A DNA stretch of 62,012 nt from contig JAMONX010000156.1 of assembly GCA_027066435.1 (NCBI GenBank), positions 1-62,012 on the forward strand, given 5' to 3'. The DNA comes from Campylobacterales bacterium (lineage in GTDB: Bacteria; Campylobacterota; Campylobacteria; Campylobacterales; QNZT01). The notes below the pieces were generated by a model that worked only from the letters and a program-made list of their open reading frames with translations, did not search any database and had not been told where the DNA came from. Shown here piece by piece: positions 77-18,009 of this stretch (positions within the stretch are counted from its first letter, which is position 1; each line of letters opens with the position of its first letter). Made by a program: the position numbers and the translations under genes.

Positions 77-154
77 GGCAAGGTAGCTCAGCTGGTTTAG
101 AGCGCTGGTCTCATAAGCCGGAGGTCGTGAGTTCAAGTCTCACTCTTGTCACCA
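77..154 (+). tRNA. tRNA with CAU anticodon (elongator tRNA-Met or lysidine-type tRNA-Ile2), CCA encoded
   Basis: Cloverleaf folded by hand: acceptor GGCAAGG/TCTTGTC (two G-U pairs), D arm TAGCTCAGCTGGTTTAGAGC, anticodon stem CTGGT/GCCGG with loop CTCATAA, T arm GTGAG-TTCAAGT-CTCAC, discriminator A plus CCA. Confidence 0.85.
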
Positions 155-470: not shown

Positions 471-1538
471 ATGGCTATTAAACCAAAGATTACATTTTTA
501 CCAGTTGATAACGGAGATAGTATAGTTATTATGATTGATGACTTTACTATAGTTATTGATGGTGGTTTGGCAAATAAATATAAAACTTTAAAGAGTTATC
601 TTGTTTCAAATAAAATAAAAAATATAGATTTATTAATTCTCACTCATTCAGACCGTGATCATATAGGAGGGATAATTTCCCTGATAAAAAACTCAGATTT
701 TAATGTAGAAAGCGTATGGTTTAATTCTTATGATAAGTTGTCTCAGATGTTTAATAAAATAAAAGACACATCACAAGATATTTCAATTGGAAGTTTTACT
801 AATGAAATTAGTTTTGCAAAAGCAAAAACATTAAGTAGTTTGCTAGACGAACAAAATAAAAACTACCTATCCATTTATAATGAAAAATTTGAAAAATTTG
901 AACATTGCATCGGAGATTTGAAATTTATATTTTTATCCCCAAGTAAAAAGGTTTTGTTTGATTTATATGAAAAATGGTCAATAGAAGATAGCAAAACTAG
1001 AAATAGAGAGATTTCTTATGCATCCAAAGAGTTTAGAACGATTGAAAACTATGCAAAAGACTTAGAAAGCTGTAAAGCAGATACTTCTATACAAAATGCA
1101 TCTAGTATTGCTTTTATTTTAGAGTACAAAAATAGTAGTTTTTTATTATTGGGTGACGCACATATAGATGTAATTGTAGAAAGTTTAAAAAATCAAAACT
1201 ATAGTCAAGATAATAAGCTTAAAGTTAATTTCGTAAAATTATCTCATCATGGAAGTAGCGCAAATATTAATCAAGATTTTTTAGATATTATAGAGACTAA
1301 TAAGTATGTTATCAGCACAAATGGAAAAAGCCATAATCATCCTGATATAGAAGCTTTATCTCTTTTGATAGTTGAAGCGAAATTAAAAAATAAGAAGATA
1401 GAGTTATGTTTTAATTACCCTAATCATGTATATGGTAATGAAAAAAATATACTAAAAGACAAAGATAATCAAGACTCATATGGTTACATATTGAATTTTG
1501 CGGCAAGCAGTAATGAAGGATATACAATTGAGTTTTAA
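471..1538 (+). CDS. ComEC-C-terminal-type metallo-beta-lactamase fold hydrolase (probable nuclease), stand-alone
   Basis: N-terminus ITFLPVDNGDSIVI, metal motif LTHSDRDHIGG (HxDxDH variant typical of ComEC/Rec2-type MBL domains), later GDAH and KLSHHGS motifs. 355 aa. Confidence 0.75.
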   Translation: MAIKPKITFLPVDNGDSIVIMIDDFTIVIDGGLANKYKTLKSYLVSNKIKNIDLLILTHSDRDHIGGIISLIKNSDFNVESVWFNSYDKLSQMFNKIKDTSQDISIGSFTNEISFAKAKTLSSLLDEQNKNYLSIYNEKFEKFEHCIGDLKFIFLSPSKKVLFDLYEKWSIEDSKTRNREISYASKEFRTIENYAKDLESCKADTSIQNASSIAFILEYKNSSFLLLGDAHIDVIVESLKNQNYSQDNKLKVNFVKLSHHGSSANINQDFLDIIETNKYVISTNGKSHNHPDIEALSLLIVEAKLKNKKIELCFNYPNHVYGNEKNILKDKDNQDSYGYILNFAASSNEGYTIEF

Positions 1539-4500
1539 TTGTGATGATGTAAAAGAATTGGCTGTCAAGATAAGCTATATTGCCAACAAAGAAAATGCAA
1601 GAGAAAGTTCTGGTGTTATTGTTAGACCTAAAAATGAGACAGATTACTTTTTTGTATTGACTGCTAAACATTCTTTTAAAGAGAATGATGAACAAGCTTT
1701 TAATGATGTCAATGTCGAGAAGTTGAAGTTAACTAATATTACAGTTATTCATGAAGAAAACAAGAATCTAAGACCTTTTAAAATTATCGATACAGAGTTT
1801 GATTTAGTAGTTTTAGTAATCAAAAATTCTTTTTGTGTAGAGAATAATCTAGCGACTACAAAAATCTTAGATGGACAATTTATAGAATGTGGATTATTTG
1901 GGTATCCAAACATAGCTGAAGGTGATTTAGATTGTCTTAAATGCACTTATTTGATGAGTCAAAATAACAATGAATACCAAATTGAGTCGAATAAGACACT
2001 TCATAGTTCCTATAAAGATGAAGTTGAAACAACTAAAGGATTCTCTGGTAGTGGGGTGTTTACACAAGTTAATGATAAATATTTACTTGCCGGTATTATA
2101 AGTGAGGTAGTTCCCCATAGAGGTTCTTTTAAGTGCATTAACCTTAGTTATGTATTAAGTAAAATATCTTTAGAAAAATATGGTGGCATTGAAACAATAT
2201 CATTAGAGTCACCAAGCACAAAGGTGCATATAAAACTACATCAAAGTCAAAACCATTTAGACATAGAACAACTTAAGATGATTATAGGAGAAGATGTCAC
2301 TAAAGAGCTCGAAAGATTCAAAGAAGAAAGTTTAAATGGAATAGAGAAAAGGATGAGAGAGTGGATTTCAGAAATAAAAAAATCACAAAAATGGAAATCA
2401 GTAGATGACACTATAAAGTCAGAAATACTTTATGAAGAGGTGAAACTATTAATCTCTGACAACAAGTTAGAAGATGCACACTTAACTATAAAAGAAATAA
2501 GAATATTGAATCCTTCAAGATATACAAATAGGCTTATGTCTTGGATTGAAATTCAGAATGGTAATTTGCCTAAAGCTGTTGCATTGCTAGATAATAATGA
2601 AACAAGTACCCTAAACCAAAAGGCAGCTATTTATATCGAAATGCGTGACTACAATAAGGCTAAGAGTGCTATAGGAAGTATTGCAATAGAAGACAGAGAC
2701 TATGAAACTTATAGAATTAAAGCAATATACGAACTCTATAAAAATGAAGAAAACCTCTTGCAGGCATTAAAAGAAATAAATAAGTCATTGGAACTAAACA
2801 CACATTACTTGGAGTCTATGAGGGTTAAGGCTATTATTCTTTTTTATCAAGCTACATTGTTTACTGTTGTTTCTAGTCTAGTTCCACCTATTGCTCAAAA
2901 AAATATGCTAAAAATTGATGCAAAAAGTCAAGAGAAGATACAGTTATCTAAAAAATTACTTAGTGAAGTTATAGAAAAATGCTCTGAGTATAGAGATAAA
3001 ACTTGGATAGTTACTATACTTATGTTATTAGATATAGATGAAGCTATAAAATATATTAAGCAAATATATAAGGATGAAACCTATAAGATAATTGCTCTTC
3101 AATTTATTGTAATGCACAATTTAGATATTGACATCGAAAAAGATATAAAAGCTATAGAGTCAGTAAAACCTTCTGATTTGCATATCATAGATACAATTAT
3201 TAAATATTATTATATTAAGCAAAATAAAGAAAAGTTATTTGATTTATTAAAAAAATATAAAGATGTTTATACTAAATATAATCAATTAGATAATTGGAAT
3301 GAAGTTTATTTTAATGCATTATTGAAATTTGAATTGTATTCAGATGCACATGATTTTATTGATAAAAATCAATTGATTGAAAAAGATGAAGCAAAAGCCA
3401 ATATTTACATGCTTACAAATGATTATAAATCTGCTTGTGCTATATATGAAAAACTATTTAAAGAAACTAGCAATCCTAATTATCGTCTGATTATTTGTGA
3501 AATAAAAGCATCGGAAAATGATTGGGAGTATATTACCAAATATACTGATTATTTGATAGAAAATTTTCAAACTGAAAAAGTTGTTGAGTTAGTTGTTTAT
3601 GCTGAAAGAAACTGTAATAATTGTAACAAAGCAAAAGAACTTATAGAGTTTTGGTCAACTAAAATAAAAAATTCATACATAATTAATAATTTTCATAAAA
3701 TTAAAGCATACTGTGAGGATAAAGCGGGTTTTCCTTATAAAGCTATATCTATATTTGAAAAACATGATTTAATAAAAACAAATCAAGATATATTGAGTTT
3801 GGCACAGCTTTATAAAAAAACAGGTTCTGATGAAAAGATAGAAAGTTTAATAATCAAACATAAAGATAATCAAGATATTGATATCAATACAAAAATTCAA
3901 ATTGCATCAATGACAAAGAATAGTCCAGTAATATTGAAAAGTATAATCAGACATAATGATATTGATAATATTGATAAATCACTAGCACTCACACTTTTAA
4001 TGGCAGATATTCAATTTGATGAAAGTATTTTCAATGCCGTTTTTGGGAAAAAAGTATCTCAAGATTTGCAAGATTTATCAAATGATGAAAATTCACAAAT
4101 ATGGATGATGAACACAAACGATATTATACCTTTTATTGCTGAACAAAAGAGACAAAGTGCCTACATGTATAATTTATATAGACAATCAAAAGTACCAGTT
4201 CACTTGGCAGAATATATCTTAGTACAGAATATGCATATATATATTAGGAGTGCAAAAAAGTTTCATTTTACTAATATAGAAAATATTAAAGATACAATAC
4301 TTTATTTGGATGTAACTTCTGTAATATTACTTTTTCAATTAAAAAAACTTGAAAAAGTTCTTAACACATTTTCAAAAGTATTCCTTCCAGCTAATATATT
4401 TTATATATTAGAAGACCTTCAAGTGAAAGAAGATTTAGTCAATATAATCAAAATAAATTTTGAACTAGGTAAATTGTTTTATTGTGAAGAGCTAAAAAAC

Positions 4501-7284
4501 CCTAAGGCTATTGATAAAGAAAATCCATCCAATACTTTATTGTCATTATTAAATATATTAGAAATAGAAGAAGATGCTATAGTTTGTGTTGATGATAGAC
4601 TTACTAATAATTTTCAAACAACGACAAATAGACAAACCATAATAGGTATAAATGATATCTTATTCTCTTTTTATAAGCAAAAAATAATTAATGAAGATGA
4701 CTACTATCTAACTCTTTTAGAGATGAGAAAAAAAGATTATCTTTATATTTTAATTACTTCAAAGGAAATTATATATCATCTTAAAAGATGCGATATTAGA
4801 AATGATGAATTAAAAGAGAGCGATAATCTTAAAATATTAAAAAAGTCATTATCCTTTATGGTAAAAAATTTTAAATATCTTAAATCATTTACACAAGAAG
4901 AAATGCAAAGTAGTCGATATGCAGAACCTTTTTTTGTAACAAATCAAGAAAGAGAGATTCATGACAGTATTATCCAACTATTTAATGAAAAATTTGAATA
5001 TAATGATGATAGATATATCTATTTAAACTGGATATTGAAAAATATATTTTCCGTAAATATGTCATATCTTACAATAAAAAAACTACCTCACAATATTGAT
5101 ATAACAAAGACGATGAGTGCAATAAGTATATCAAGTTTATTTGTACAAGCTATTCGAATTACATCTATATCTAGTCAGAAATCATATTTTGATTGGGTCT
5201 ATCATAATTATTTTGATATATTTTTTAGCATAAATCAAGATATATTTGAAGGGTCTATTAATTTTATACAAAATTTTATTACTCATGATCTTATTAAAGA
5301 AAACTCATCAAAAGAAGAGAAATTTATAGTAGGAAACCTTATTACAAATTTTCCACCAAGAATAAAAGAGCGAATAGTTGGTAATAATAAAATACTTGAT
5401 TCCCTAATGTTACATAAGATTATAAGCATTAGAAATCTAAAATTTGACGATAATGATTTTACTGCCAGCATAAAACAAGTAATTAATGGTGGTAGGCAAA
5501 AAACAATAAAAACAGTTGATGAGAAGAATGAAATAATTTTACTTAAAGCTAAAACAATAAAAGGAGAAGAAGAGATAGAGTTTATACATGATGGAAAAAT
5601 TGAATATATGGATGATGTATTTAAAATTTTATCAACATCGCCATTGAAACGAATAAAACTCTGTGAAAATAATCCTAAATGGTTTAATATGTCAGATAAA
5701 AATAAAGAAGTAAGCATAGAGAAACTAAATTCTATAAAAATTCATCAAGATCGACTTGAAGAGCTATACAAAGTAATTGATAACTCATACTTTTATAAAA
5801 ATATTGGTGATAAACTCAAATCTAAAAAGCTCGATTTTCAAGATCTATGCCCTGAAAATATTAATACTCTATTGAATCACTTTAGGTTAGATCAAGATTT
5901 ATCATTTGATAAAGCATTGGACTTGTCAATAGAAACGTTGTTAAGTGAGAAGCAAATTACTGAAGTTATTGATACAGTTCATCATTTTCCTGTATTATTT
6001 CCAAGTAAAATAATTGATATATTATCCAAAAAAAATAATCAGGAGCAGATGCAACTTATAAAACAATTCCTAAAGACATCTAATTCACCAATATCTATTA
6101 TTCAGATGATGCGAGTATTATTGGAAGTTGATGCAGAAAGATTCAGTTTTATTATAAGGTATTTATTAAAACAATTATTTTCGAAAAAATTCAAATTAGA
6201 AATCAGAGCTTTTTTTGAACTATTAAACTATATAAAACAAGAATTTAATAGAAGATATAGAGATTTAAATAATGAAATAAAATTAATTTTAATTTGGGCT
6301 CATACAAATAAGCTTATGAAATTTTTCAATGCATATAATGTGAGTTCTGAATGGATGATTAAAGAGTTTAAGCAACGATCAAGTATACCAACAATTGAGA
6401 TTTTTAAAACAGATTATGACTACAGTAAAGATGTTTTAAATGATACATTTAATTATGAGAGATTTTTAGTTTCATCTGTTTGCTATATCTACAATAATGA
6501 CTTTTCAAAAGCTCAAGGTACTTTTGCAAAAAACAAAATTGAAAAATTAGTTGATGGTTATAATAACAGTTTGGATTTTATTTGCCTAAATGTATCAATG
6601 CCAAATGCTACAGGTACATTCTTGCAAGTTGAAGATATGAGTATTTTATCTAGTTTTCCAACTTTAGAAAAATCCTTAAATGCAATAGATGATTTTGTCT
6701 TGAACTCTTGGGAACATAGTATAATCCCATTAAATTTAATGTCTTTAAAATATAATACAAATAAACTTAACAATATTATAGAAGATAAACTAGTTGAATA
6801 TATAAAAAACTATAGGTCAAATAATTCTAGATTTATAGATATCAAATTTAGTAAGTCAAAAGATATATATTTTCAAAATTACTATATTAAAAAATTTAAT
6901 ATACAAAAATGGAATAAAAATATTAACAGCACACATATGATTTTACTTGACTTATTATTTATGATAAAGCAGCTAAAAAATATTGAAGATAAAAATGTTT
7001 CAAAAAAGGTAGAAAAATCACTTATTGATATATCTAATGATATAAGGACAGAAAATGAAGCAGGTGCTTTATTTGAAGCACTTATATATTTATCCACCTA
7101 TCGAAAAGATGATCTAAAATCTAGAGTCAAATTATTTGTGAAATATATACATATTTGTAAAAAACTGCAAGAGTTTGATGCAATTTCACGAATAATAAAT
7201 GTACTTTTAACTCATCTTCCTATGGAATATGCTAATTGTTTTTTATTGGAAAAATTTGAAAATATGTATGAAAATACAATTTAA
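1513..7284 (+). CDS. Giant multidomain protein: N-terminal trypsin-like (PA-clan S1) serine protease, TPR-like helical repeats, possible PIN-like segment, long uncharacterised alpha-helical C-terminal region
   Basis: Uninterrupted ORF. The track start at 1498 is TTG; the first ATG is 1513. It overlaps the MBL gene end (1538). Protease triad motifs: VLTAKHSF (His codon 1669-1671), FDLVVLVI (Asp 1801-1803), GFSGSGVF (Ser 2044-2046). No GxxxxGK[ST] seen anywhere in the protein. Confidence 0.8.
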   Translation: MKDIQLSFNCDDVKELAVKISYIANKENARESSGVIVRPKNETDYFFVLTAKHSFKENDEQAFNDVNVEKLKLTNITVIHEENKNLRPFKIIDTEFDLVVLVIKNSFCVENNLATTKILDGQFIECGLFGYPNIAEGDLDCLKCTYLMSQNNNEYQIESNKTLHSSYKDEVETTKGFSGSGVFTQVNDKYLLAGIISEVVPHRGSFKCINLSYVLSKISLEKYGGIETISLESPSTKVHIKLHQSQNHLDIEQLKMIIGEDVTKELERFKEESLNGIEKRMREWISEIKKSQKWKSVDDTIKSEILYEEVKLLISDNKLEDAHLTIKEIRILNPSRYTNRLMSWIEIQNGNLPKAVALLDNNETSTLNQKAAIYIEMRDYNKAKSAIGSIAIEDRDYETYRIKAIYELYKNEENLLQALKEINKSLELNTHYLESMRVKAIILFYQATLFTVVSSLVPPIAQKNMLKIDAKSQEKIQLSKKLLSEVIEKCSEYRDKTWIVTILMLLDIDEAIKYIKQIYKDETYKIIALQFIVMHNLDIDIEKDIKAIESVKPSDLHIIDTIIKYYYIKQNKEKLFDLLKKYKDVYTKYNQLDNWNEVYFNALLKFELYSDAHDFIDKNQLIEKDEAKANIYMLTNDYKSACAIYEKLFKETSNPNYRLIICEIKASENDWEYITKYTDYLIENFQTEKVVELVVYAERNCNNCNKAKELIEFWSTKIKNSYIINNFHKIKAYCEDKAGFPYKAISIFEKHDLIKTNQDILSLAQLYKKTGSDEKIESLIIKHKDNQDIDINTKIQIASMTKNSPVILKSIIRHNDIDNIDKSLALTLLMADIQFDESIFNAVFGKKVSQDLQDLSNDENSQIWMMNTNDIIPFIAEQKRQSAYMYNLYRQSKVPVHLAEYILVQNMHIYIRSAKKFHFTNIENIKDTILYLDVTSVILLFQLKKLEKVLNTFSKVFLPANIFYILEDLQVKEDLVNIIKINFELGKLFYCEELKNPKAIDKENPSNTLLSLLNILEIEEDAIVCVDDRLTNNFQTTTNRQTIIGINDILFSFYKQKIINEDDYYLTLLEMRKKDYLYILITSKEIIYHLKRCDIRNDELKESDNLKILKKSLSFMVKNFKYLKSFTQEEMQSSRYAEPFFVTNQEREIHDSIIQLFNEKFEYNDDRYIYLNWILKNIFSVNMSYLTIKKLPHNIDITKTMSAISISSLFVQAIRITSISSQKSYFDWVYHNYFDIFFSINQDIFEGSINFIQNFITHDLIKENSSKEEKFIVGNLITNFPPRIKERIVGNNKILDSLMLHKIISIRNLKFDDNDFTASIKQVINGGRQKTIKTVDEKNEIILLKAKTIKGEEEIEFIHDGKIEYMDDVFKILSTSPLKRIKLCENNPKWFNMSDKNKEVSIEKLNSIKIHQDRLEELYKVIDNSYFYKNIGDKLKSKKLDFQDLCPENINTLLNHFRLDQDLSFDKALDLSIETLLSEKQITEVIDTVHHFPVLFPSKIIDILSKKNNQEQMQLIKQFLKTSNSPISIIQMMRVLLEVDAERFSFIIRYLLKQLFSKKFKLEIRAFFELLNYIKQEFNRRYRDLNNEIKLILIWAHTNKLMKFFNAYNVSSEWMIKEFKQRSSIPTIEIFKTDYDYSKDVLNDTFNYERFLVSSVCYIYNNDFSKAQGTFAKNKIEKLVDGYNNSLDFICLNVSMPNATGTFLQVEDMSILSSFPTLEKSLNAIDDFVLNSWEHSIIPLNLMSLKYNTNKLNNIIEDKLVEYIKNYRSNNSRFIDIKFSKSKDIYFQNYYIKKFNIQKWNKNINSTHMILLDLLFMIKQLKNIEDKNVSKKVEKSLIDISNDIRTENEAGALFEALIYLSTYRKDDLKSRVKLFVKYIHICKKLQEFDAISRIINVLLTHLPMEYANCFLLEKFENMYENTI

Positions 7285-7519: not shown

Positions 7520-9634
7520 ATGACAACAAAAGAACTAAAAAAACTAGAAAATGATTTATGGGACACGGCAAATACTTTAAGAGCGACTGGCGGTATCAAG
7601 TCTTCTGATTATGCTGTGCCTGTTTTGGGGATTATATTTTTACGATTTGCGGACAATAAGTATGATCTTGTCGAAGCAGATATCTTAAAAGAGTTTGAAA
7701 AGAACAGAGGTACAAGAGCAGAAGTATCTATAGAAAAGATAGCAGTTCGTACATGTGGTATATATCTAAGTGAGAGTTCACGATATGAATATCTTTTAAA
7801 TCTTCCAAGTTCTCAGAGTATGGCAGAAGCTATCAAAAATGCTATGGAAGATATCGAGAAGCATCAAGATGAACAGTTTAAAGATATATTGCCAAAAGAT
7901 GCATATGCTGAGATAGAAAACAATAGTAGTGAAATCCTTCCTAAACTTATCAAAACATTTTCGGATATTCCCAAAGATGCATCTGGCGATGTGTTTGGAA
8001 AGATTTATGAATATTTTTTGGGTAAGTTTGCACTGAGTGAAGGTCAAAAGGGTGGAGAGTTTTTTACACCTACTTCTGTTGTAAAGTTTATCGTTGAGAC
8101 TATCGAACCTTATAAAGGAAAGATATTTGATCCTGCTTGTGGTAGTGGTGGTATGTTTGTACAGTCTGCGAACTTTTTGGAGAGAACAAAACATACAAGA
8201 GATGCTATATATGTCTGTGGTCAGGAAAATGAACAATCAACAGTGAAACTAGCAAAGATGAATCTACTTGTAAATAATTTAAGTGGTGAGATAAAAAAAG
8301 CAAACTCTTATGAAGAAAATCCTTATAACAGTAAAGGTAAGTTTGACTTTGTCATGGCAAATCCTCCTTTTAATGTCAAAGGTGTTAAAGAGAGTGCTGT
8401 AAAAAATGATGAACGATTTACGGAGTATGGATTGCCCAAAAATAAGGATAAAAAAGATGACAAAATCACCGATGCAAACTATCTGTGGATTTCACTGTTT
8501 GCTACATCACTAAATGATAAAGGTCGTGCAGGATTTGTCATGCCAAACTCTGCTTCGGATGCTAGAAATAGTGAAGGTGAGATACGAAAAAAGATAGTAG
8601 ATAGTGGTATAGTTGAAGTGATGGTAACGATACCCTCAAATATGTTTTATACTGTAACTCTTCCTGCTACACTTTGGTTTTTTGATAAAGAAAAAGTGAA
8701 CACTCCAAGAAAAGACAAGATACTTTTTATAGATGCAAGAGCAGTTTATAATCAAATAGATAGGGCTCATAGAGAGTGGACAGATGAACAAGTGCAAAAC
8801 TTGGCTTCAATCGTCAGGCTTCATCGTGGGGAAAAAGAGAGGTATCTGGAGCTTATCGCTAGATATATCGAAAGTTTTCAAGAAAATATAGAGGGTATTG
8901 AGAAACTGTTTGATACTTATCATGGTAGTCATGATGGCTTGATATTGGCGTTAAAAAGTTATCAAGAAAAAAGTGAAAGTAAAAGAAAAAAAGAGGCTTG
9001 TGAGAGACTAAAATCTTCTGGATTTTTAGAAGATTTAGAGAAACTCCAAACACTAGAAACTCCAAGTTTTCCTTCACTCAAAGAGATAAAAAGTTTTGAC
9101 ACAAATCATCATGATAACTCCTCTCAGATAAGTGTAGCAAAAAAGATAGGCGAGGTAGTACAAAGCTATCATGATAGGTTAAAAACAATACAAGAAAGAC
9201 ACTATTTTTTACTAGATACTTATAAGAGTAGTGAAAAATATCTCAAACTAAAAGCAGATAAAACATGGGGAGAGTTAGCCCTTGTGAAAAAGAAACTTTT
9301 TGTAGAACTGAACTTTAATCATATTCAAGAGAAGCTAGAGAGTATCTGTTATTGGTATCAAAACATAGAGTGGCTTCAAAGTAAGTTTCCAGATGCCAAG
9401 TATGTAGATATCGTAGGGCTTTGTAAAGTGGCTTTACGGGATGAGTATGTAGATGAAGAGGATTATTCGTTAAATGCTGGGCGATATGTGGGAATAACAC
9501 TTGAGGATAAAAATATCACTGAAGAGGAGTTTAAAGCATCTTTGCAAGAGAAACATCAAAAGTTACAAGTTTTAAATGAACAAGCACATGTGTTAGAGAA
9601 GTTGATTGATGAAAATATGAGTAAGGTTTTATAG
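7520..9634 (+). CDS. hsdM: Type I restriction-modification system methyltransferase subunit (N6-adenine), long form
   Basis: HsdM_N-like N-terminus (LWDTANTLRA), SAM motif FDPACGSGGMF, catalytic NPPF (VMANPPFN), C-terminal YSLNAGRYVG. Followed by hsdS and hsdR. Confidence 0.92.
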   Translation: MTTKELKKLENDLWDTANTLRATGGIKSSDYAVPVLGIIFLRFADNKYDLVEADILKEFEKNRGTRAEVSIEKIAVRTCGIYLSESSRYEYLLNLPSSQSMAEAIKNAMEDIEKHQDEQFKDILPKDAYAEIENNSSEILPKLIKTFSDIPKDASGDVFGKIYEYFLGKFALSEGQKGGEFFTPTSVVKFIVETIEPYKGKIFDPACGSGGMFVQSANFLERTKHTRDAIYVCGQENEQSTVKLAKMNLLVNNLSGEIKKANSYEENPYNSKGKFDFVMANPPFNVKGVKESAVKNDERFTEYGLPKNKDKKDDKITDANYLWISLFATSLNDKGRAGFVMPNSASDARNSEGEIRKKIVDSGIVEVMVTIPSNMFYTVTLPATLWFFDKEKVNTPRKDKILFIDARAVYNQIDRAHREWTDEQVQNLASIVRLHRGEKERYLELIARYIESFQENIEGIEKLFDTYHGSHDGLILALKSYQEKSESKRKKEACERLKSSGFLEDLEKLQTLETPSFPSLKEIKSFDTNHHDNSSQISVAKKIGEVVQSYHDRLKTIQERHYFLLDTYKSSEKYLKLKADKTWGELALVKKKLFVELNFNHIQEKLESICYWYQNIEWLQSKFPDAKYVDIVGLCKVALRDEYVDEEDYSLNAGRYVGITLEDKNITEEEFKASLQEKHQKLQVLNEQAHVLEKLIDENMSKVL

Positions 9635-10881
9635 TGTCAAAAATTGAATGGATTGAAAAAACACTTGGTGACTTGATTCATATTAAACATGGTTGGGCAT
9701 TTAAAGGTGAATATTTTGCTAGTGATGGTGAGTATATCGTAGTAACTCCTGGAAATTTTTTTGAAGAAGGTGGTTTTCGTCTTAGAATTGGTAAAGAGAA
9801 ATTTTATACTGATAAATTTCCAACAGAGTACCTTTTAAAGAAAAATGACTTGGTGATTGCTATGACTGAACAAGGAGAAGGATTACTTGGAAGTCCAGCT
9901 TTGATACCTTATGATGATGTATTTTTACATAATCAAAGAATTGGGCTATTTCAAGATTTTGATGAAGAGTTAGTATCTAAAGAGTATTTATATTATCTAT
10001 TTTTTACACAGTACATACGAGACACTATTGCTAACTCTTCAACAGGAACAAAAGTTCGACATACTGCACCTAAAAGCATTTATAAAATCAAAGTAAAATT
10101 ACCCTCACTAAAAACTCAAACAAAGATAGCTTCCATCCTCTCCTCTTATGATGAACTCATAGAAAACAACAACCAACGCATCAAACTCCTTGAAGAGATG
10201 GCGGAAGAGATTTATAAAGAGTGGTTTGTGAGGTTTAGGTTTCCAGACTTTCAAAATGTAAAAATGGTTGATGGGATACCTGAAGAGTGGAAAGAGAATC
10301 AAATGAAAGATTATGGAAAAATAGTAACAGGAAAAACACCATCAACACAATGTAGTGATAATTTTGGTGGCAATATCCCATTTATAAAAATTCCAGACTT
10401 TAAACAAGGTTTATTTGTAATTGATACTGATGAAACACTTAGTTTAAAAGGTGCAAACTCTCAGAAAAATCAATTTATTCCTGCTAATTCAATTTGTATT
10501 AGTTGTATTGGTAGTGTTGGGGAAGTTGCTATTACTATGGAACAATCACAAACAAATCAGCAAATTAATACTATAGAGTTGCAAAATATTAATAATTTAG
10601 AATATTTATATTTTGCATTAAAAAAATTAAAACCTATAGTAGAGGCATATGCTGCAACTGGTGCAACAATGGGTAATATAAGTAAAGGTAAATTTGAAAA
10701 ACTAAAACTTGTAAAACCTAATGATTTTCTTTTGGAAAAGTTTAGTGATATTGTAAAACCAATATTTGAAGAGATAAAAAATCTAATGCAAAAAAACCAA
10801 AACCTAAAACAAACAAGAGACCTACTATTACCACGACTTATCAGTGGCAAATTGGATATAGAAAAACTAAAGATAACCTAA
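9634..10881 (+). CDS. hsdS: Type I R-M specificity subunit with two target-recognition domains
   Basis: GTG start overlapping the hsdM stop by 1 nt (TAGTG). Central conserved region LPSLKTQTKIASILSSYDELIENNNQRIKLLEEMAEEIYKEWFVRFRFP and C-terminal conserved region QTRDLLLPRLISGKL. Confidence 0.9.
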   Translation: MSKIEWIEKTLGDLIHIKHGWAFKGEYFASDGEYIVVTPGNFFEEGGFRLRIGKEKFYTDKFPTEYLLKKNDLVIAMTEQGEGLLGSPALIPYDDVFLHNQRIGLFQDFDEELVSKEYLYYLFFTQYIRDTIANSSTGTKVRHTAPKSIYKIKVKLPSLKTQTKIASILSSYDELIENNNQRIKLLEEMAEEIYKEWFVRFRFPDFQNVKMVDGIPEEWKENQMKDYGKIVTGKTPSTQCSDNFGGNIPFIKIPDFKQGLFVIDTDETLSLKGANSQKNQFIPANSICISCIGSVGEVAITMEQSQTNQQINTIELQNINNLEYLYFALKKLKPIVEAYAATGATMGNISKGKFEKLKLVKPNDFLLEKFSDIVKPIFEEIKNLMQKNQNLKQTRDLLLPRLISGKLDIEKLKIT

Positions 10882-10891
10882 AGGAGCAGAC

Positions 10892-13800
10892 ATGGCATAT
10901 CTAAACGAATCACATATAGAAGATGCAGATATAGCATTTTTTTCAGAGCTTGGATATGCTCATATAAATGCTTGGAAAGATGAACTTTTGGGTAGAAAGT
11001 CTCTTAAAGAGGTTGTTTTAAGAGATAAGCTAGAGTCTGCTCTTGTCACCATAAATCCTACTTTGCCACTGATAGCCATACATGATGCTTTGGATATGCT
11101 CACAAAATCTCGTGCAAGTCAAGGTGAACTTGAATCAAACATGGAGCTTTATCATCTTATCAAAGATGGTGTACCTGTGACATTTACCAATGATGAAGCC
11201 AAAGAGGAAGTGACAAAAGTAAAAGTGATAGATTTTGAAAACAGTTCAAACAATGACTTTTTGATTGTCTCTCAACTTACCATTGAGTATAGAGATAGCA
11301 ATGCAAAGAGAAGACCGGATTTGATTTTATATGTCAACGGTTTACCGCTCATCATGATAGAGTTAAAAAATGCAACGATCAAAGTCAAGCAGGGTTATGA
11401 TAAAAATTTACAAGATTATAGGCAAGATATTCCTCAACTTTTTTACTACAATCTTTTTATCATTATCTCAAATGGCATACAGACAAGAGTAGGGAGTTTT
11501 AATGCTCCATGGGAGCACTTTTTTACTTGGAGTAAACTAGAAGACAATGTAAAAAATCATGACCAACAAACTCTTTTACAAGTAGAACAACAAAGCAAAG
11601 ATGAAAAATCAAGACTCTCTTTAAAGATAGTAACTGAAGGTTTATGTTCAAAAGATAAGCTTATTGATTATTGTGAGAATTTTGTACTTTATCATAGAAA
11701 CAAGGTAAAGATTATCGCAAAAAACCATCAATTTTTGGGAGTCAATGTTGCGATAGACTCTTTTAATAAGAGAGATGGTTCAGGAAAGCTTGGTGTATTT
11801 TGGCATACACAAGGGAGTGGAAAGTCCTACTCTATGATATTTTTCTCCAAAAAGATAAATCGCCGTATCGAGGGGAATTGGTCATTTTTGATATTGACCG
11901 ATAGAAATGATTTGGATGATCAGATATTTAGAAACTTTTTGGATACAAAAACTTTTGAGATATCAAGTAGTGAGCAACAGACAAAAAATCAGTACAGAGC
12001 AAAAGGGACTTCAAGTCGAAAACAGTTAGAAGAAGCGTTAAGTAAAAACAAAAGCTACTTTTTCTCAACCATCTTTAACTTTGCCGTAGCCAAAGGAAAA
12101 ACATACACACAAAAATCAGATAGAAATAACTGGATAGTCATCATCGATGAAGCACACCGAAGCCAATATAAAGGGTATGGAGAAAATATCAAGATAGCTC
12201 TACCAAATGCACAGTTTATAGCTTTTACAGGAACACCTATACTTAAAAGTGGATTGACTGAACAGTGGTTTGGCTCTTATATATCTGAATATAATTTTGC
12301 TCAAAGTATAGAAGATGGAGCGACTGTGCCATTGTACTATCGTAAAAGTGTACCTAGTGTTGAACAAGTCAATGAAGAGTTGGTAGGAGATGCAGCAGAG
12401 ATACTAGATAGTCATGATTTAAATGAAGAACAACAACAAAAACTTGATCGTGAGTATTCAACACTATTTGAAGTGGTTAAGCGTGATGATAGATTGGATG
12501 AAGTGGCAAAACATATCGTTAAACATTTTCCTTCACGCTTAGATGTTATAAATGAAGAGGGAGATAGAAAACCGATGAAAGCAATGGTTGTTTCTATCGA
12601 TAAGTTTACAGCACTTCGTATGCATGACAAAGTACAACACTTTTTGAAAGAAGAGTTAAAAGAGCTTCGTAAAGAAAAATCAAGATGTAGAGATAGTGAA
12701 CAAAAAGAGATAATCAGTCGTAAAATTGACTTTATCAATGAGACTAAAATGGCAGTTGTCATAAGTCAAGAGGGTGGTGATAGGCAAGAGAGGGAAAAGT
12801 TTGCAGAAGTAGGCTTAGATATCACACCTCATAGAAAACTTATGGATTCTCCTGATGAAGATGGGAGAGACATAGAAGACTACTTTAAAGACCCAAACAA
12901 TCCTTATAGAGTAGTGTTTGTAACAGCCATGTGGATGACTGGATTTGACGCTCCAAGTGTTTCAACACTTTATCTTGATAAGCCTATGAAAAACCATACT
13001 TTGATGCAGACTATCGCAAGAGCAAACAGAGTGTATGAGGGTAAGAAAAATGGGCTTATTATAGATTATTTTGGTGTTTTTAGAAGTTTAAAAAAAGCAT
13101 TGAGTGATTATGCTGAGGGTTCAAGTGGTACAAGTTCACCACTTGATATGCCTGTAAAAGAGTTTGGTGAACTTCTAAAACTCTTAGAACAAGGCATCAA
13201 AGAGTGCAAAATGTACCTAAATGATTTTGATGTCGACGTAGAGCGTATACATGCGTTGGGTGAAAAAGGGTTTAAAGAAGTTGTACTATTTCAAGACTTT
13301 GCAGATACTATCTTGGAAAATGATGATAGACGAAAGCGATTTAACCTTTTTGTCAACACTATCTCTTCACTTTATGATTCTGCAAAACCCGAAGTTTATG
13401 AATACCCACACATCAAAAAAGAGAGAGATCTGTTTTTATACCTCAAGGACATAGTAAACCGTAAACTTGACCGTGATGAAGAGATACAAAAGGCTCGAAA
13501 AGAGGTAGATGATTTGCTTGATAGTAGTGTACTTGGTAAAGGTGACTTGGATGATGGCAAGGTAAATATCACAGACTATAAAGAGATAAATCTTGGAAAA
13601 CTTAACTTTGAAAAACTACGAGAAGAATTTCCCAAAAAAGAGCATAAGAACATGAGCTTTACGGATTTAAAAGAGTTTATGGAGTTAAAACTAAAACAGA
13701 TGATGGCTAGAAATAAAACAAGAGGATCTTTTTTAGAAAACTTTGAAAGAGTCATCGATGAATATAACAATGGCAGTATAGAGATAGAAGAAGCATATGA

Positions 13801-14176
13801 AAAGCTTTTGAGAGAGGCTCAAAGGCTAAGTGATGAAGAAAACCGTGCTCTTTCTATGGGACTTAGTGAAGAGGAGTTAGAGATATTTGACTTGCTTAAA
13901 AAAGATAAGCTAACAAAAGATGATGAAAAAGAGGTACGAAAAGCATCAGTTTTGCTACTTAAAAAACTTGAAGATAAAAAACATGAGTTGTTTATGTATA
14001 AGTGGTATAAAGAGAAGCAGAAAAAAGAGAGAGTTCAAGATGAGATAAAAAAAGTGCTTGACCAAGCTTTACCTGCATCATATAAAAAAGACATTTTTAT
14101 GAAAAAGAATGAAGAAATTTTTGCTCATATTTACCATTTGGCAGAGGTAGGAAATAGCCGATATTTGAGTGCTTAG
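10892..14176 (+). CDS. hsdR: Type I restriction endonuclease/helicase subunit
   Basis: N-terminal nuclease-like RRPDLILYVNGLPLIMIELK, helicase motifs HTQGSGKS, IIDEAHRSQ, FTGTP, MTGFDAP, QTIARANR. 1094 aa. Confidence 0.93.
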   Translation: MAYLNESHIEDADIAFFSELGYAHINAWKDELLGRKSLKEVVLRDKLESALVTINPTLPLIAIHDALDMLTKSRASQGELESNMELYHLIKDGVPVTFTNDEAKEEVTKVKVIDFENSSNNDFLIVSQLTIEYRDSNAKRRPDLILYVNGLPLIMIELKNATIKVKQGYDKNLQDYRQDIPQLFYYNLFIIISNGIQTRVGSFNAPWEHFFTWSKLEDNVKNHDQQTLLQVEQQSKDEKSRLSLKIVTEGLCSKDKLIDYCENFVLYHRNKVKIIAKNHQFLGVNVAIDSFNKRDGSGKLGVFWHTQGSGKSYSMIFFSKKINRRIEGNWSFLILTDRNDLDDQIFRNFLDTKTFEISSSEQQTKNQYRAKGTSSRKQLEEALSKNKSYFFSTIFNFAVAKGKTYTQKSDRNNWIVIIDEAHRSQYKGYGENIKIALPNAQFIAFTGTPILKSGLTEQWFGSYISEYNFAQSIEDGATVPLYYRKSVPSVEQVNEELVGDAAEILDSHDLNEEQQQKLDREYSTLFEVVKRDDRLDEVAKHIVKHFPSRLDVINEEGDRKPMKAMVVSIDKFTALRMHDKVQHFLKEELKELRKEKSRCRDSEQKEIISRKIDFINETKMAVVISQEGGDRQEREKFAEVGLDITPHRKLMDSPDEDGRDIEDYFKDPNNPYRVVFVTAMWMTGFDAPSVSTLYLDKPMKNHTLMQTIARANRVYEGKKNGLIIDYFGVFRSLKKALSDYAEGSSGTSSPLDMPVKEFGELLKLLEQGIKECKMYLNDFDVDVERIHALGEKGFKEVVLFQDFADTILENDDRRKRFNLFVNTISSLYDSAKPEVYEYPHIKKERDLFLYLKDIVNRKLDRDEEIQKARKEVDDLLDSSVLGKGDLDDGKVNITDYKEINLGKLNFEKLREEFPKKEHKNMSFTDLKEFMELKLKQMMARNKTRGSFLENFERVIDEYNNGSIEIEEAYEKLLREAQRLSDEENRALSMGLSEEELEIFDLLKKDKLTKDDEKEVRKASVLLLKKLEDKKHELFMYKWYKEKQKKERVQDEIKKVLDQALPASYKKDIFMKKNEEIFAHIYHLAEVGNSRYLSA

Positions 14177-14281: not shown

Positions 14282-14581
14282 ATGATTACATCAGTAAGCA
14301 AAAAAAATAGTCTTCACACCGTAAAACCAAAAGAACTTCTAAAAATTGGACTTGATCCAGCAGTTCTTTGGAATGTTGATAGAGATAGAGAAATTGAAAG
14401 TTCTATTTTTATAGTTGCAACACTTAAAAATGGTTACAATGAGAAAATTGTATTAACTCTAAAAGAGTATTTTGGTACAGATATGATTTTAACCTCGCTA
14501 AACAAACATAGAAGTAGAGTATCTGATAAACTATTTCAGAGTGTAAATAAATACCTTGAACAATCTTTATCTGTTGCATGA
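14282..14581 (+). CDS. Hypothetical small protein, possibly the antitoxin-side partner of the truncated downstream gene
   Basis: 99-aa ORF whose stop overlaps the next ATG in an ATGA junction (14578-14581). No recognisable motif. Confidence 0.4.
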   Translation: MITSVSKKNSLHTVKPKELLKIGLDPAVLWNVDRDREIESSIFIVATLKNGYNEKIVLTLKEYFGTDMILTSLNKHRSRVSDKLFQSVNKYLEQSLSVA

Positions 14582-14808: not shown

Positions 14809-15996
14809 ATGATACCGATACTTAGTAAACTATCTAAGCGATTTTTGAGTGCAAAGCCATCCTCTTTCAAGAGATTTTTATATGAACAGATAGACTTTTC
14901 AGCAAAGATCATAGGTATAGTGGGTGGTAGAGGCTCAGGTAAAACTACCCTCATGCACCAGTATGCAAAAGCATCAAAATATAAAAGCTCTCAGATACTA
15001 TACATATCTTGTGATCATCCCTCTGTTATACAAACAGATATATATGAGATAGTGGATGATTTTTATGTTAGAGGTGGCAAACTGCTCTTGCTTGATGAAA
15101 TACACAAGATAAAAGAGTTTTCAAAACATCTCAAAGCCATCTATGACTTTACAGATCTTCAAGTTATCTTTTCTGGATCTTCTGCTATGAGTATCAAACA
15201 TGAGAGTGGAGATCTCTCAAGAAGAGCTTTGATATACGATATGCCTGTTCTCTCTTTTAGAGAGTTTTTAGCACTGAAAAATATCGCCCATCTAAAGTCA
15301 TTCACACTTGATGAGATACTATCTTCTCATGAGGATATAGTCGTAGATATACTAGAACATATAAAGCCGTTAGAGCATTTTGAGAACTATTTGGAGTATG
15401 GAGCATATCCGTTTTTCAAAGAGGGTATAAACTCATATAGCGATAGACTGTTAGAGGTAGTACATACCACTATAGACAGTGACTTAGCATCTATCTTTAG
15501 CATAAATCACGATAAACTTGATGCCCTGAAAAAGGTGCTATATATGCTCTGTAGCACCACTCCTTATGAGGTAAACAAATCAAAACTATCAAACAGTGCA
15601 GGAGTCTCATGGAGTACACTTTCAAAGTACTTAGAGTATATGCAAAAAGGATCACTGCTCAACATCATAAGAGGAAGCAAAGGGCATAAAACTATCCAGA
15701 CACCAAACAAGATACTACTAAACAATCCAAACCTTTTTAGTGTGCTTTGTGCCAAGGCTGACATAGGAGCTATAAGAGAGAGTTTTATCATCTCACAACT
15801 TTTGACTTCACATCAGGTACATTATCATCATCAGGGAGATTTTTTGATAGATGAGCGTGTAGTTTTAGAAGTGGGTGGCAAATCAAAAGATGCAAAACAG
15901 ATAGCAGGGATAAAAAATGCTTATCTAGCTATAGATGACATAGAGAGTGGATATGATGATGTTATACCTCTTTGGTTGTTTGGGTTTTTGTATTAA
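14809..15996 (+). CDS. AAA family ATPase (COG1373 / DUF4143-type)
   Basis: Walker A GGRGSGKTT and Walker B LLLDEIH. Size and C-terminal region are typical of the AAA_14 + DUF4143 architecture. AAGGAG RBS upstream. Confidence 0.75.
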   Translation: MIPILSKLSKRFLSAKPSSFKRFLYEQIDFSAKIIGIVGGRGSGKTTLMHQYAKASKYKSSQILYISCDHPSVIQTDIYEIVDDFYVRGGKLLLLDEIHKIKEFSKHLKAIYDFTDLQVIFSGSSAMSIKHESGDLSRRALIYDMPVLSFREFLALKNIAHLKSFTLDEILSSHEDIVVDILEHIKPLEHFENYLEYGAYPFFKEGINSYSDRLLEVVHTTIDSDLASIFSINHDKLDALKKVLYMLCSTTPYEVNKSKLSNSAGVSWSTLSKYLEYMQKGSLLNIIRGSKGHKTIQTPNKILLNNPNLFSVLCAKADIGAIRESFIISQLLTSHQVHYHHQGDFLIDERVVLEVGGKSKDAKQIAGIKNAYLAIDDIESGYDDVIPLWLFGFLY

Positions 15997-16479: not shown

Positions 16480-17907
16480 TTAATTTTTGTTATTTGTAAG
16501 TTTTATATTATCTAAAAATCCTCCAGTTGCTACAAATGTATCAACTGAGATGATTTTATTTCCAGGCTCTAGTTGCTCTAAATAATCATTAAGATTTACT
16601 TTAAAATGTTCCCATTTGTTAAGATTATTTTGAAAACCATAACCTCTCACTAACTCTACAGGAGAAGGGTAATAGAGCCAAATATGTTTTCCTCCATAGT
16701 TAGCTTTAAATGCATCAATTTCATCATGGTTAAACCACGAATCCCAAGTCATAACTCTTAATCCAAATTTTGTTGTCACATACACTCCAATTGAGTAGTG
16801 GGGCATTGAACCTTTTATATTGTTAGCATGTATGCCACCTAATTCTCCACCCTTTTTTCCTACACCTCCGATATCTAATTCAAGAGTTGAGTGTGAATAG
16901 TTGTTTAAAGGTAGTTGATACTCTACAGCGTTATATACTTTAGATACCCAATTTGTTGTTAACTTAACTGAGCCTTTGCTTTTATAGCCAGTAGAGATTC
17001 TTTTTGGTTTATATTCTCCTATAACTACTTGCCAATTATCTGATATACCTTTTTCGGCATCTTCATATAGTATAAAATCATCACTCTCTTGGACTTCTAC
17101 AACAATAGGTTTTTTAGGCTTTTCTACTATAGTAGGTGAATTTTTCTTTTTTTCTGTAGTTATCTTCTCAACTACTGTAAATTTAGAAGTAGCAACATCG
17201 TCAAAAGAGTTTTCAAAAAATGCTTTTACTTCATATTCTCCTGCTTCAACAACATGGATATAAATTAATCCCTGTTTTATACCTTTTGTCCATCGCCAAT
17301 TTACAACATTTTTCCACTCATTAGTATCTTCTGTGCGATAAATACCTATCCAATCCTCTTTGTCACCCAACATACCTGCTATACTAACTTCTATGCTTTG
17401 ATTAACTTCATACACTTTTTTATCTGTACTTATTGTAGTCGTTTTATCTGTTGTACCAGTTGTTGTACCAGTTGTTGTACCAGTTGTTGTACCAGTTGTT
17501 GTACCAGTTGTTGTACTAGTTGTTGTGTTCCCGTCTGTTCTAATAGTTTTAATATCTTCAACAGACTTCTCTTTGAGTTGGATATTGAAATTTTGATTAC
17601 TATCTTTAGATATGAAAATTGTAGTGGTATCTTTTTTGATTTGTAAATTTTGCTCTTGTTTGATTACAAAGTATATATCTGGTTCTTGTTTTGCACTCTT
17701 TTGTGTATCTGGTAATGTTCTTGTTTGGTGATTTGGTATATTACTATCATACTCTCTAGTATGATTTTGGTTGATATATAAATATTCTGCTATTTTTTTA
17801 TCTTGGTAATCTTTTGTTAGTGATATATCACTTTCATCTACAACACTTCCGCATCCAGCTATCAAACTACTTAAAAGAGCAATATAGCATAAATTTCTCC
17901 ATTTCAT
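16480..17907 (-). CDS. Secreted lipoprotein with Thr/Gly-rich repeat linker and uncharacterised C-terminal domain
   Basis: Lipobox LIAGC in MKWRNLCYIALLSSLIAGCGS. (TTTG)n linker encoded by the 12-nt tandem repeat. Confidence 0.7.
   Translation of the reverse strand: MKWRNLCYIALLSSLIAGCGSVVDESDISLTKDYQDKKIAEYLYINQNHTREYDSNIPNHQTRTLPDTQKSAKQEPDIYFVIKQEQNLQIKKDTTTIFISKDSNQNFNIQLKEKSVEDIKTIRTDGNTTTSTTTGTTTGTTTGTTTGTTTGTTDKTTTISTDKKVYEVNQSIEVSIAGMLGDKEDWIGIYRTEDTNEWKNVVNWRWTKGIKQGLIYIHVVEAGEYEVKAFFENSFDDVATSKFTVVEKITTEKKKNSPTIVEKPKKPIVVEVQESDDFILYEDAEKGISDNWQVVIGEYKPKRISTGYKSKGSVKLTTNWVSKVYNAVEYQLPLNNYSHSTLELDIGGVGKKGGELGGIHANNIKGSMPHYSIGVYVTTKFGLRVMTWDSWFNHDEIDAFKANYGGKHIWLYYPSPVELVRGYGFQNNLNKWEHFKVNLNDYLEQLEPGNKIISVDTFVATGGFLDNIKLTNNKN
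17455..17526. repeat. In-frame 12-nt tandem repeat (ACCAGTTGTTGT x5 perfect, plus one ACTAGTTGTTGT variant)
   Basis: Read directly. Encodes TTGT repeats on the minus strand inside the lipoprotein gene. Confidence 0.95.
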
Positions 17908-18009
17908 TATCTTAATTTCTCCACTTTTTAATTATTTGTTTGCATTATAAAACAATAAGGTAAAAAATTAAATAACTTAATGAAATTAATCATAATTGAT
18001 TAAGGGGGT

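Follow-up and report, generated by a model that had tools for sequence, protein, structure and literature searches.

A predicted protease-gated DNase on an NTPase-free, TGP-like giant protein: a candidate defence module of Campylobacterales

Introduction

What might two overlapping genes accomplish together when one encodes a 355-residue hydrolase with the fold of a metallo-beta-lactamase (MBL) and the other a giant protein of 1923 residues that opens with a serine protease? Such a pair lies at positions 471 to 7284 of contig JAMONX010000156.1 (assembly GCA_027066435.1) from a Campylobacterales bacterium, whose 62,012 nucleotides, read on the forward strand, are referred to here as the window. 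A preliminary description, made from the letters alone, had taken the pair for an uncharacterised abortive-infection system in which a sensor of helical repeats commands two degradative effectors, a protease and a nuclease. The computational analysis reported here makes it probable that the pair is a defence module of the abortive-infection type, namely a protease-gated DNase mounted on an ATPase-free sensor that resembles the TPR-GreAB-C-PIN (TGP) proteins.

Two lines of published work meet at this locus. In trypsin-MBL systems the MBL protein is a zymogen whose gene immediately precedes one that opens with a trypsin-like protease, and this protease cuts two gating loops of the MBL protein to release a Zn-dependent DNase; the cuts follow I118 and I218 in PflHamM, I134 and I234 in EpiAvs1a, and I133 and I232 in VcMBL (Tuck et al., PMC12799240; Evans et al., PMC12642450; Huang et al., 10.1101/2025.09.03.673762). 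The sites at PflHamM I118 and EpiAvs1a I134 were mapped experimentally (PMC12799240 and supplement). Published carriers of the module comprise HamMAB (Hachiman), Avs1a/Avs1b, Avs2/Avs4-MBL, Lamassu-MBL, DRT-MBL and ABC-3C-MBL (PMC12799240; PMC12642450; 10.1101/2025.09.03.673762), and in Avs and Hachiman the protease is controlled by ATP binding or hydrolysis together with oligomerisation. The TGP proteins were delineated computationally as a constant TPR/GreA/B-C/PIN core that bears one of 13 heads; the N-terminal effectors include restriction endonuclease (REase), HNH, PNPase, GT4, SMEK, caspase and trypsin domains, the last explicitly listed (Kaur et al., 2021, PMC8195603). Agp, the TGP protein of Bab/Agp, has been shown experimentally to be an anti-T5 sensor whose GreA/B-C domain is required (10.1101/2024.11.07.622273).

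Results

The MBL gene travels with the protease head

The two genes are co-directional and overlapping, as the preliminary description had stated:

471..1538, + strand: MBL-fold ComEC-like pro-nuclease, a predicted gated zymogen of 355 residues (Pfam, PADLOC and PDB ComEC matches)
1513..7284, + strand: giant gene, putative sensor/activator (seven full-length homologues; a C-terminal profile that matches 832 clusters)

The MBL open reading frame (ORF) begins with ATG. The reading frame of the giant gene is open from 1498 to 7284 and yields 1923 residues from the ATG at 1513, a start that overlaps the MBL stop by 26 nt and has no obvious ribosome-binding site. Within 1498-1530 the start codon is ambiguous among TTG 1498, ATG 1513 and TTG 1528; the last has AAGGA 7 nt upstream, agrees with the N-termini of homologues P0002, P0004 and P0005, and would overlap the MBL stop by 11 nt, as in loci L002 and L003.

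Seven full-length homologues of the giant protein, 44-100% identical to it, were found among 5.8 billion clustered proteins. Co-conservation of the MBL gene, which the preliminary description had named as a point to check, was found throughout the clade: an MBL gene stands directly upstream in ten of ten loci, that is, in the window and in nine of nine others, which comprise six metagenomic contigs or contigs of metagenome-assembled genomes (MAGs), a Campylobacterales MAG, an uncultured Sulfurovum and Poseidonibacter lekithochrous. Even the giant of Poseidonibacter, with no more than 24% identity to that of the window, has the MBL gene upstream. The MBL clade is tight and mirrors the giant clade. 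An MBL gene also precedes two trypsin-headed giants that are more distantly related; this MBL gene is intact in L076 and broken into three ORFs in L075.

As a control, 62 metagenomic loci of REase-headed relatives were searched, and they gave no MBL or trypsin match even at E<10. In the 25 of these loci that are informative (giant ORF longer than 1500 residues and at least 1.1 kb of upstream sequence) the MBL gene is absent in 25 of 25, against its presence in ten of ten protease-headed loci. The MBL gene therefore travels with the protease head and not with the chassis that carries it. From locus to locus the pair is followed by unrelated genes, which rules out a third conserved gene, and the unit therefore consists of two genes.

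Two loci outside this pattern carry other upstream genes. At L074:3481-11984 a trypsin-headed giant of 2327 residues (P0060) lacks an upstream MBL gene, and a gene for a 507-residue metallophosphoesterase-like protein overlaps its start by 4 nt; that protein could be a different protease-activated effector. On plasmid p1 of Leptolyngbya boryana IU 594 (L073:2265-9805) a 2213-residue 'caspase family protein' has the same C-terminal chassis (E 1.6e-62). Upstream of it lie a 297-residue ORF with a GHSLGS alpha/beta-hydrolase motif and a multiubiquitin/ThiF/DUF6527 trio, an arrangement in which the same chassis may carry another type of protease-effector module, corresponding to the alpha/beta-hydrolase zymogen that Evans et al. 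describe.

The upstream protein resembles gated MBL pro-nucleases

Homology searches place the first protein among ComEC-like MBL proteins, the type originally proposed for it. The match to Pfam Lactamase_B (5.5e-11) passes the cut-off, and over its full length the protein matches PADLOC LmuA PDLC03854 (7.9e-83), with further PADLOC matches to RTasMBL (6e-54) and Avs1a (4.7e-43). NCBIfam Avs1a is matched at 2.4e-52 with 178 bits, under the cut-off of 420. In the PDB search its solved relatives are the nuclease (MBL) domains of ComEC, relative to which the window protein has about 70 additional residues between the strands that bear HxDxDH and QN.SS. Two motifs frame the active site:

645..662, + strand: metal-binding motif H59-S-D61-R-D63-H64 (D61, D63 and H64 are 99-100% conserved in 117 homologues)
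1236..1256, + strand: K256-L-S-H259-H260-G-S262, second metal/active-site cluster (K256, H259, H260 and S262 are 100% conserved in 117 homologues)

Both motifs on which the preliminary description relied, HSDRDHIGG (residues 59-67) and HHGS (residues 259-262), are thus present and conserved, and the metal-binding set is intact, with HxDxDH, D229, H259/H260 and H288/H290 all conserved. By homology we assign the protein to the gated pro-nuclease family of HamM, Avs1a and the Lamassu-type MBL proteins.

The giant protein opens with a chymotrypsin-fold protease

The N-terminal head of the giant protein has no match in the hidden Markov model (HMM) libraries of Pfam, PADLOC and NCBIfam. Its fold and its catalytic residues were recovered from structure prediction and alignment:

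1513..2217, + strand: chymotrypsin-fold serine protease head, residues 1-235 (AlphaFold2 model, Foldseek matches, invariant triad)
1669-1671, 1801-1803 and 2044-2046, + strand: protease triad H53, D97 and S178, the serine within G-F-S-G-S-G (invariant down to 24% identity)

An AlphaFold2 (AF2) model built from nine sequences reached a pLDDT of 78.5 and a pTM of 0.83. A Foldseek search of the PDB with this model returned 1009 matches at E<=1e-3, every one a PA-clan/chymotrypsin-fold protease, among them Esp/V8-type proteases, DegS/DegQ, factor B, factor XIa and 3C-like enzymes; Esp (6tya) matched at E 1.2e-8 with a TMt of 0.66. The trypsin-like protease first read from the sequence is confirmed by this fold and by the invariant H53, D97 and S178.

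Among annotated proteins, the closest to the head is the N-terminal part of an 'ABC-three component system protein' encoded on a plasmid of Priestia aryabhattai (28% identity, E 7e-14), and directly upstream of that gene stands an 'MBL fold metallo-hydrolase' 31% identical to the MBL protein of the window. ABC-3C is a published host of the trypsin-MBL module (PMC12642450; 10.1101/2025.09.03.673762).

Two candidate cleavage sites share their P1 residue

The MBL proteins were aligned with PflHamM and EpiAvs1a, whose sequences were taken from the supplement of Tuck et al. (PMC12799240), in a MAFFT alignment of 120 sequences. Two candidate sites for the protease emerged:

807..812, + strand: predicted cleavage site 1, I113/S114 in N-E-I-S-F-A-K-A-K (MAFFT column shared with mapped sites)
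1011..1016, + strand: predicted cleavage site 2, I181/S182 in R-E-I-S-Y-A-S (P1 co-variation with site 1)

I113 falls in the same column as the mapped PflHamM I118 and EpiAvs1a I134 and is followed by S114; across the family P1 at this site is I, T or V, and P1' is S or G. The E-I-S motif recurs in the window protein at residues 180-182. At this second column P1 equals P1 of site 1 in 62% of 114 homologues compared with 22 +/- 3.5% in shuffles, figures to which the relatedness of the sequences attaches a caveat, and among representatives less than 50% identical the agreement is 69% versus 25% shuffled. Columns adjoining site 2 show only 0-5% identity with the P1 residue of site 1. The matched pairs among the 114 homologues are T/T (32), I/I (22), M/M (7), V/V (5), R/R (4) and H/H (1). 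Duplicated motifs also occur elsewhere, K-M-S twice in the Priestia plasmid MBL and F-T-G, likewise doubled, in L076; in L002, the closest homologue, both sites retain E-I-S. Because the first aligns with mapped sites and P1 of the second co-varies with it, I113/S114 and I181/S182 are each a likely cleavage site. Early guesses at 'DISIGS' (102-107) and 'TSIQN' (205-209) were dropped after the alignment with HamM and Avs1a.

The body of the giant protein is TGP-like and lacks an NTPase

Behind the head, the preliminary description had seen TPR-like repeats and then more than 1100 residues of unassigned helical sequence. The second part of that account needs refinement: a predicted HTH module, a PIN-like domain and a candidate permuted GreAB-C-like beta module lie within:

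2260..4092, + strand: TPR-like helical repeats, residues ~250-860 (weak Pfam TPR matches, E 0.02-0.06)
4105..4284, + strand: HTH module, Pfam HTH_upst_double_PIN-like, residues ~865-924 (Pfam E 0.034 at 870-901)
4285..4797, + strand: PIN-like nuclease domain, residues ~925-1095 (acidic residues, Pfam, AF2/Foldseek)
5410..5607, + strand: beta-rich Permuted_GreAB-C-like module, residues ~1300-1365, with the motif INGGRQKTIKT (transitive Pfam mapping)
5608..7281, + strand: helical region at the C-terminus, fold unassigned, residues ~1366-1923 (superfamily-wide conservation as far as about residue 1710)

The TPR-like repeats are weak in the window protein itself, with a best E of 0.0017 among the seven close members; they stand firm in aligned relatives, where TPR/ANAPC3 matches are significant (best 1.3e-12). 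HTH_upst_double_PIN reaches significance (best 4.8e-18) in 20 of the 24 diverse relatives scanned, including P0014, which aligns along the whole C-terminal length. In the PIN-like domain the acidic residues D933, D/E968, D1027, D1028 and D1048 are invariant across relatives of 24-49% identity. The Pfam family PIN-TPR-GreABC (PF20698), described as the 'PIN domain associated with the TPR-GreAB-C-PIN system', matches the window protein at E 0.12 and is significant in four of 24 relatives (best 3.2e-8). This region is also the sole confident part of the C-terminal AF2 model (pLDDT 65-88) and gave its sole domain-sized Foldseek matches, all to PIN domains (SMG5 2hwy, probability 0.85, TMt 0.62; SMG6; VapC4). 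We hold with moderate confidence that a PIN domain of the TGP type is present. For the beta-rich block, the Permuted_GreAB-C (PF24388) match of relative P0024 (5e-7, residues 1151-1190) was carried by hmmalign onto residues 1309-1350, where AF2 places six beta strands; Permuted_GreAB-C was found in one of 24 relatives.

No Walker A or GK[ST] motif occurs in any of the seven close members, which upholds the initial exclusion of the STAND/Avs pattern, and a single chance match occurs among 158 retrieved proteins. A PDB sequence search with the giant protein returned noise only.

Word-indexed searches with the giant protein or its head retrieved the narrow clade and fragments only, and an exhaustive profile search was required to reach beyond them; the diverse alignment (A9) was too divergent for a locus scan. 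Searched in this way, a profile of residues 861-1923 matched 832 representative clusters, 277 of them below 1e-30 and mostly of 1600-2300 residues, with matches that span profile positions ~150-850. Pfam families PF20698, PF24407 and PF24388 are matched within this superfamily. N-terminal heads in 106 relatives are REase-like (43), trypsin-like (12, plus divergent singletons), HNH-like (12) and PNP (2), with GT4-conflict, SMEK, NNH and caspase heads besides and some relatives headless, a repertoire that agrees with the list in PMC8195603. On this homology the giant protein is best placed as a divergent member of the broader TGP class, outside the Agp family, because its domain order (PIN before GreAB-C) and its size differ.

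The pair lies in defence islands

The pair does sit between a tRNA gene and a complete type I restriction-modification (R-M) operon, as had been noticed at the outset:

77..154, + strand: tRNA-Met (CAT), not part of the system (ARAGORN; Rfam tRNA, 63 bits)
7520-9634: hsdM, type I R-M (PADLOC)
9634-10881: hsdS, type I R-M (PADLOC)
10892-14176: hsdR, type I R-M (PADLOC)

The tRNA gene stands 316 nt upstream of the MBL gene, and the operon (7520-14176) follows directly on the giant gene. The greater AT-richness first judged by eye was borne out by measurement: the GC content is 25.7% in the pair, 33.7% in the R-M genes and 30.4% over the whole window, and that of the pair is the third lowest value among 276 sliding 6.8-kb windows. 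The clade as a whole is very AT-rich, and the identified hosts of its close members are all Campylobacterota, which fits the low GC. The left edge of the island is marked by the tRNA-Met, which is possibly an integration hotspot. Within the window we found no integrase, no meaningful direct repeats, no second copy of the tRNA 3' end or other att-like repeat, and no structured RNA in Rfam besides the tRNA; a promoter and terminator scan showed no enrichment over shuffles.

Neighbours across the loci support the proposal of a conserved two-gene module of defence islands, with Gabija, RADAR, DarTG, AbiE, Hhe and Fic genes among them. The window has the R-M operon and a PDC-S01 ATPase (PADLOC); L001 has GajA/GajB, DarT/NADAR and AbiEii; L002 an integrase and RdrA/RdrB; L003 an AbiL/HEC-01-like ATPase; L004 and L008 Fic (PDC-S04); and L005 and L006 HepT/MNT and ParE toxin-antitoxin genes. 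In Poseidonibacter lekithochrous A1R12 (L009:7695-15788) a resolvase, AbiEii and an Hhe-like helicase lie downstream. No copies of the pair were found in IMG/VR or in the GenBank phages of INPHARED, and a phage or viral origin was rejected.

Some of these surroundings deserve mention in their own right. The Hhe-like giant of L009 has 1945 residues with DUF4011, helicase and REase parts (PADLOC PDC-S37/Hhe), and this locus, a compact defence island of a cultured strain, would serve well for experiments. Immediately behind the R-M operon of the window come a 99-residue ORF that lacks matches (14282-14581) and an AAA_14/DUF4143 ATPase (14809-15996; PADLOC candidate PDC-S01, 1e-31). Three consecutive ORFs of 475, 351 and 263 residues at 16480-19843 on the minus strand have no Pfam match, the middle one giving a weak PADLOC match to LeoBC (6e-4). 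As this block lies between the defence genes and a ChaN-like gene at 19909, it could be further island cargo.

Discussion

How the pair relates to named systems

The pair shares with the published trypsin-MBL modules an MBL protein of about 355 residues, ComEC-like, whose gene lies upstream of and overlaps a gene with an N-terminal trypsin-like protease; predicted loop insertions in the MBL protein, with a P1 Ile followed by Ser aligned to HamM I118 and Avs1a I134; strict co-occurrence of the MBL gene with the protease head; and a defence-island context. It departs from them in its sensor body, which is neither a STAND NTPase, HamA/HamB, an LmuB-SMC, a reverse transcriptase, an ABC ATPase, a short Ago nor Dsr2 and has no P-loop, and in a head too divergent for HMM detection. 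Evans et al. (PMC12642450) mention '20 uncharacterized types', among which the window sensor may or may not fall, and the main texts of PMC12799240, PMC12642450 and 10.1101/2025.09.03.673762 did not yield a TGP sensor class.

With the TGP proteins the giant shares the exchangeable N-terminal effector, the lack of an NTPase and, with moderate support, the PIN domain of the constant core, along with putative TPR and GreAB-C-type parts. In contrast to Agp, which runs TPR-GreAB-C-PIN in 1094 residues, it is predicted to run TPR-HTH-PIN-(permuted) GreAB-C followed by some 570 further residues. TGP genes were described as mostly stand-alone (PMC8195603), whereas the clade of the window has an obligatory MBL partner, and the window protein matches the PIN and GreAB-C families of Pfam only below threshold or transitively.

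Other named systems fit less well. AVAST type 1 resembles the pair in having an MBL protein followed by a protease with helical repeats, and in the match of the MBL protein to Avs1a models. An Avs1/STAND assignment was nevertheless rejected, as the pair has no P-loop, STAND NTPase or Walker A/B motifs, matches neither Avs1b nor Avs1c and lacks a third gene, and NCBIfam Avs1a scores 178 against a cut-off of 420. Lamassu was also rejected: the MBL protein alone matches 'LmuA', and no SMC gene is conserved beside the pair. Canu (PMC12799240) likewise associates a protease-activated MBL pro-nuclease with TPR proteins; it differs in having a caspase rather than a trypsin fold, its MBL gene downstream rather than upstream, and three genes rather than two.

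The claim that the pair matches no named defence system thus stands for the giant protein, which no PADLOC or NCBIfam defence model matches, and not for the MBL protein, which matches LmuA, RTasMBL and Avs1a. The word 'uncharacterised' describes the pair only in part, since an MBL gene upstream of a trypsin head is the published gated pro-nuclease module.

A predicted protease-to-DNase cascade

That correspondence is also why the protease is most likely the activator of the MBL nuclease and not a second, parallel effector, so that the original picture of two degradative effectors gives way to a probable cascade. Under the proposed mechanism the first gene would supply a ComEC-like MBL DNase as an inactive zymogen, with two predicted loop insertions that block the active site. 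The second would supply a 1923-residue ATPase-free sensor composed of the protease head, TPR-like repeats, HTH, PIN, a permuted GreAB-C-like module and the helical C-terminus. Upon infection the giant protein would change state, most likely by oligomerising; its protease heads would be brought together and cut the MBL protein after I113 and I181; and the freed nuclease would degrade DNA, so halting phage replication at the cost of the cell. We base this reading on MBL family homology, the alignment of site 1, the fold and triad of the protease, the co-occurrence of MBL and head and the defence-island context, while cleavage, DNase activation and oligomerisation are carried over from the published HamMAB, Avs1 and Avs2 work.

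What would trip the sensor is more speculative. By analogy with the model of Kaur et al. and with the Agp GreA/B-C mutants, the GreAB-C/PIN part might read phage-modified RNA polymerase or transcription complexes, and if these are the trigger the PIN RNase could form a first tier. A two-tier scheme modelled on Kaur et al. develops this thought: the PIN RNase would cut transcripts of hijacked RNA polymerase engaged by GreAB-C, and the protease-MBL cascade would be a suicidal back-up. We regard it as possible, though rather unlikely. The superfamily-wide invariance of the PIN acidic residues suggests an active or essential PIN domain, a candidate GreAB-C-like module is present, the model has been proposed in print (PMC8195603), and Agp GreA/B-C mutants lose defence (10.1101/2024.11.07.622273); against this, RNA cleavage has been shown for no TGP PIN domain, the Agp D762N mutant is unstable, and the window protein gives no direct match to GreAB-C. 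The scheme is compatible with the protease-gated DNase, which it extends rather than excludes.

The data speak more strongly against independent effectors, a scheme in which the protease would attack host or phage proteins and a constitutively competent MBL nuclease would act beside it, both released by the helical-repeat sensor. Both enzymes do keep intact catalytic motifs, and effector-independent defence proteases exist (PMC12642450). Yet the MBL protein has predicted loop insertions and an aligned cleavage site like those of zymogens already characterised, P1 residues co-vary between its two loops in the way one would expect if its protease co-evolved with it, its gene tracks the protease head and not the chassis, and in every characterised trypsin-MBL pair the MBL protein is inactive until cut (PMC12799240; PMC12642450). 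Independent action is accordingly improbable. Least credible of all is a role outside phage defence, be it as an addiction or stabilisation module of a tRNA-Met integrative island, a decaying remnant or a housekeeping nucleic-acid-processing pair, for although a tRNA gene adjoins the pair, its GC is low, an integrase or resolvase lies near in L002 and L009, several copies appear disrupted and toxin-antitoxin genes are frequent neighbours, the window holds neither an integrase nor an att repeat, most of the neighbours are genuine defence systems, experiments have established the MBL family as a defence effector, and the patchy, rare distribution with full-length conservation at 24-79% identity implies selection.

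Several observations weigh against the protease-gated DNase as we describe it. The family of the window is known from computation only, and those oligomerising sensors that have been published are NTPases or helicase complexes, whereas the TGP chassis has no NTPase. Compared by HMM and hhalign, the head shows no significant similarity to the PflHamA protease, the serine motif alone aligning (hhalign E 0.077). Site 2 could not be aligned to HamM I218 or Avs1a I234, because the second loop varies in length. P1 is not Ile everywhere, the P0004-P0007 subclade having V at site 1 and S or T at site 2, and in the wider MBL family Thr is as frequent at P1 as the published Ile, which suggests diversified, matched protease specificities. 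In the body, the GreAB-C assignment is transitive only, with no direct Pfam match in the window protein; the AF2 model of residues 861-1923 from six sequences is poor (pLDDT 50), and Foldseek found no significant global match for it. Finally, some copies look damaged: the giant is frameshifted in the Campylobacterales MAG BB8 (L007:10016-13979), the MBL gene is truncated at its 3' end at L004:119-1090, and at L075:444-1685 it is broken up into three ORFs. Assembly errors could account for such copies, as could the real decay of a costly system.

Significance

The effector cassette and its mechanism are known since 2025, and the TGP chassis has been described by computation, trypsin being among its listed heads. 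What appears to be new is the trypsin-MBL cassette on a rare NTPase-free TGP-like sensor, which does not amount to a categorically new system. Defence finders nonetheless overlook it: PADLOC matches the MBL protein only and labels it Lamassu, DRT or Avs, a naming that could cause mis-annotation.

Studies of the cassette have until now been confined to ATP-dependent sensors (Avs, Hachiman). The giant protein has no nucleotide-binding site, and its switch must therefore work differently from those of Avs and Hachiman; if the proposed reading is right, this would be the first trypsin-MBL system to be switched by something other than an ATPase or a helicase. Taken together, and tentatively, an NTPase-free TGP sensor may license the protease-to-DNase cascade, possibly by reading phage-subverted transcription through its HTH, PIN and GreAB-C parts, while a P1 code (I/I, T/T, M/M, R/R) might insulate co-resident modules from cross-activation; we put this joint reading forward as a conjecture more likely wrong than right in its full extent. 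The P1 match between the gating loops does provide a testable rule for assigning to each pro-nuclease the protease that opens it.

Of the TGP systems, Bab/Agp alone has been put to the test, and an output in the form of a proteolytic cut would make the TGP activation signal accessible to experiment, with MBL cleavage, if the reading holds, as a direct biochemical read-out of sensor activation. The pair thus provides a useful handle on how NTPase-free sensors can control a trypsin-MBL cassette.

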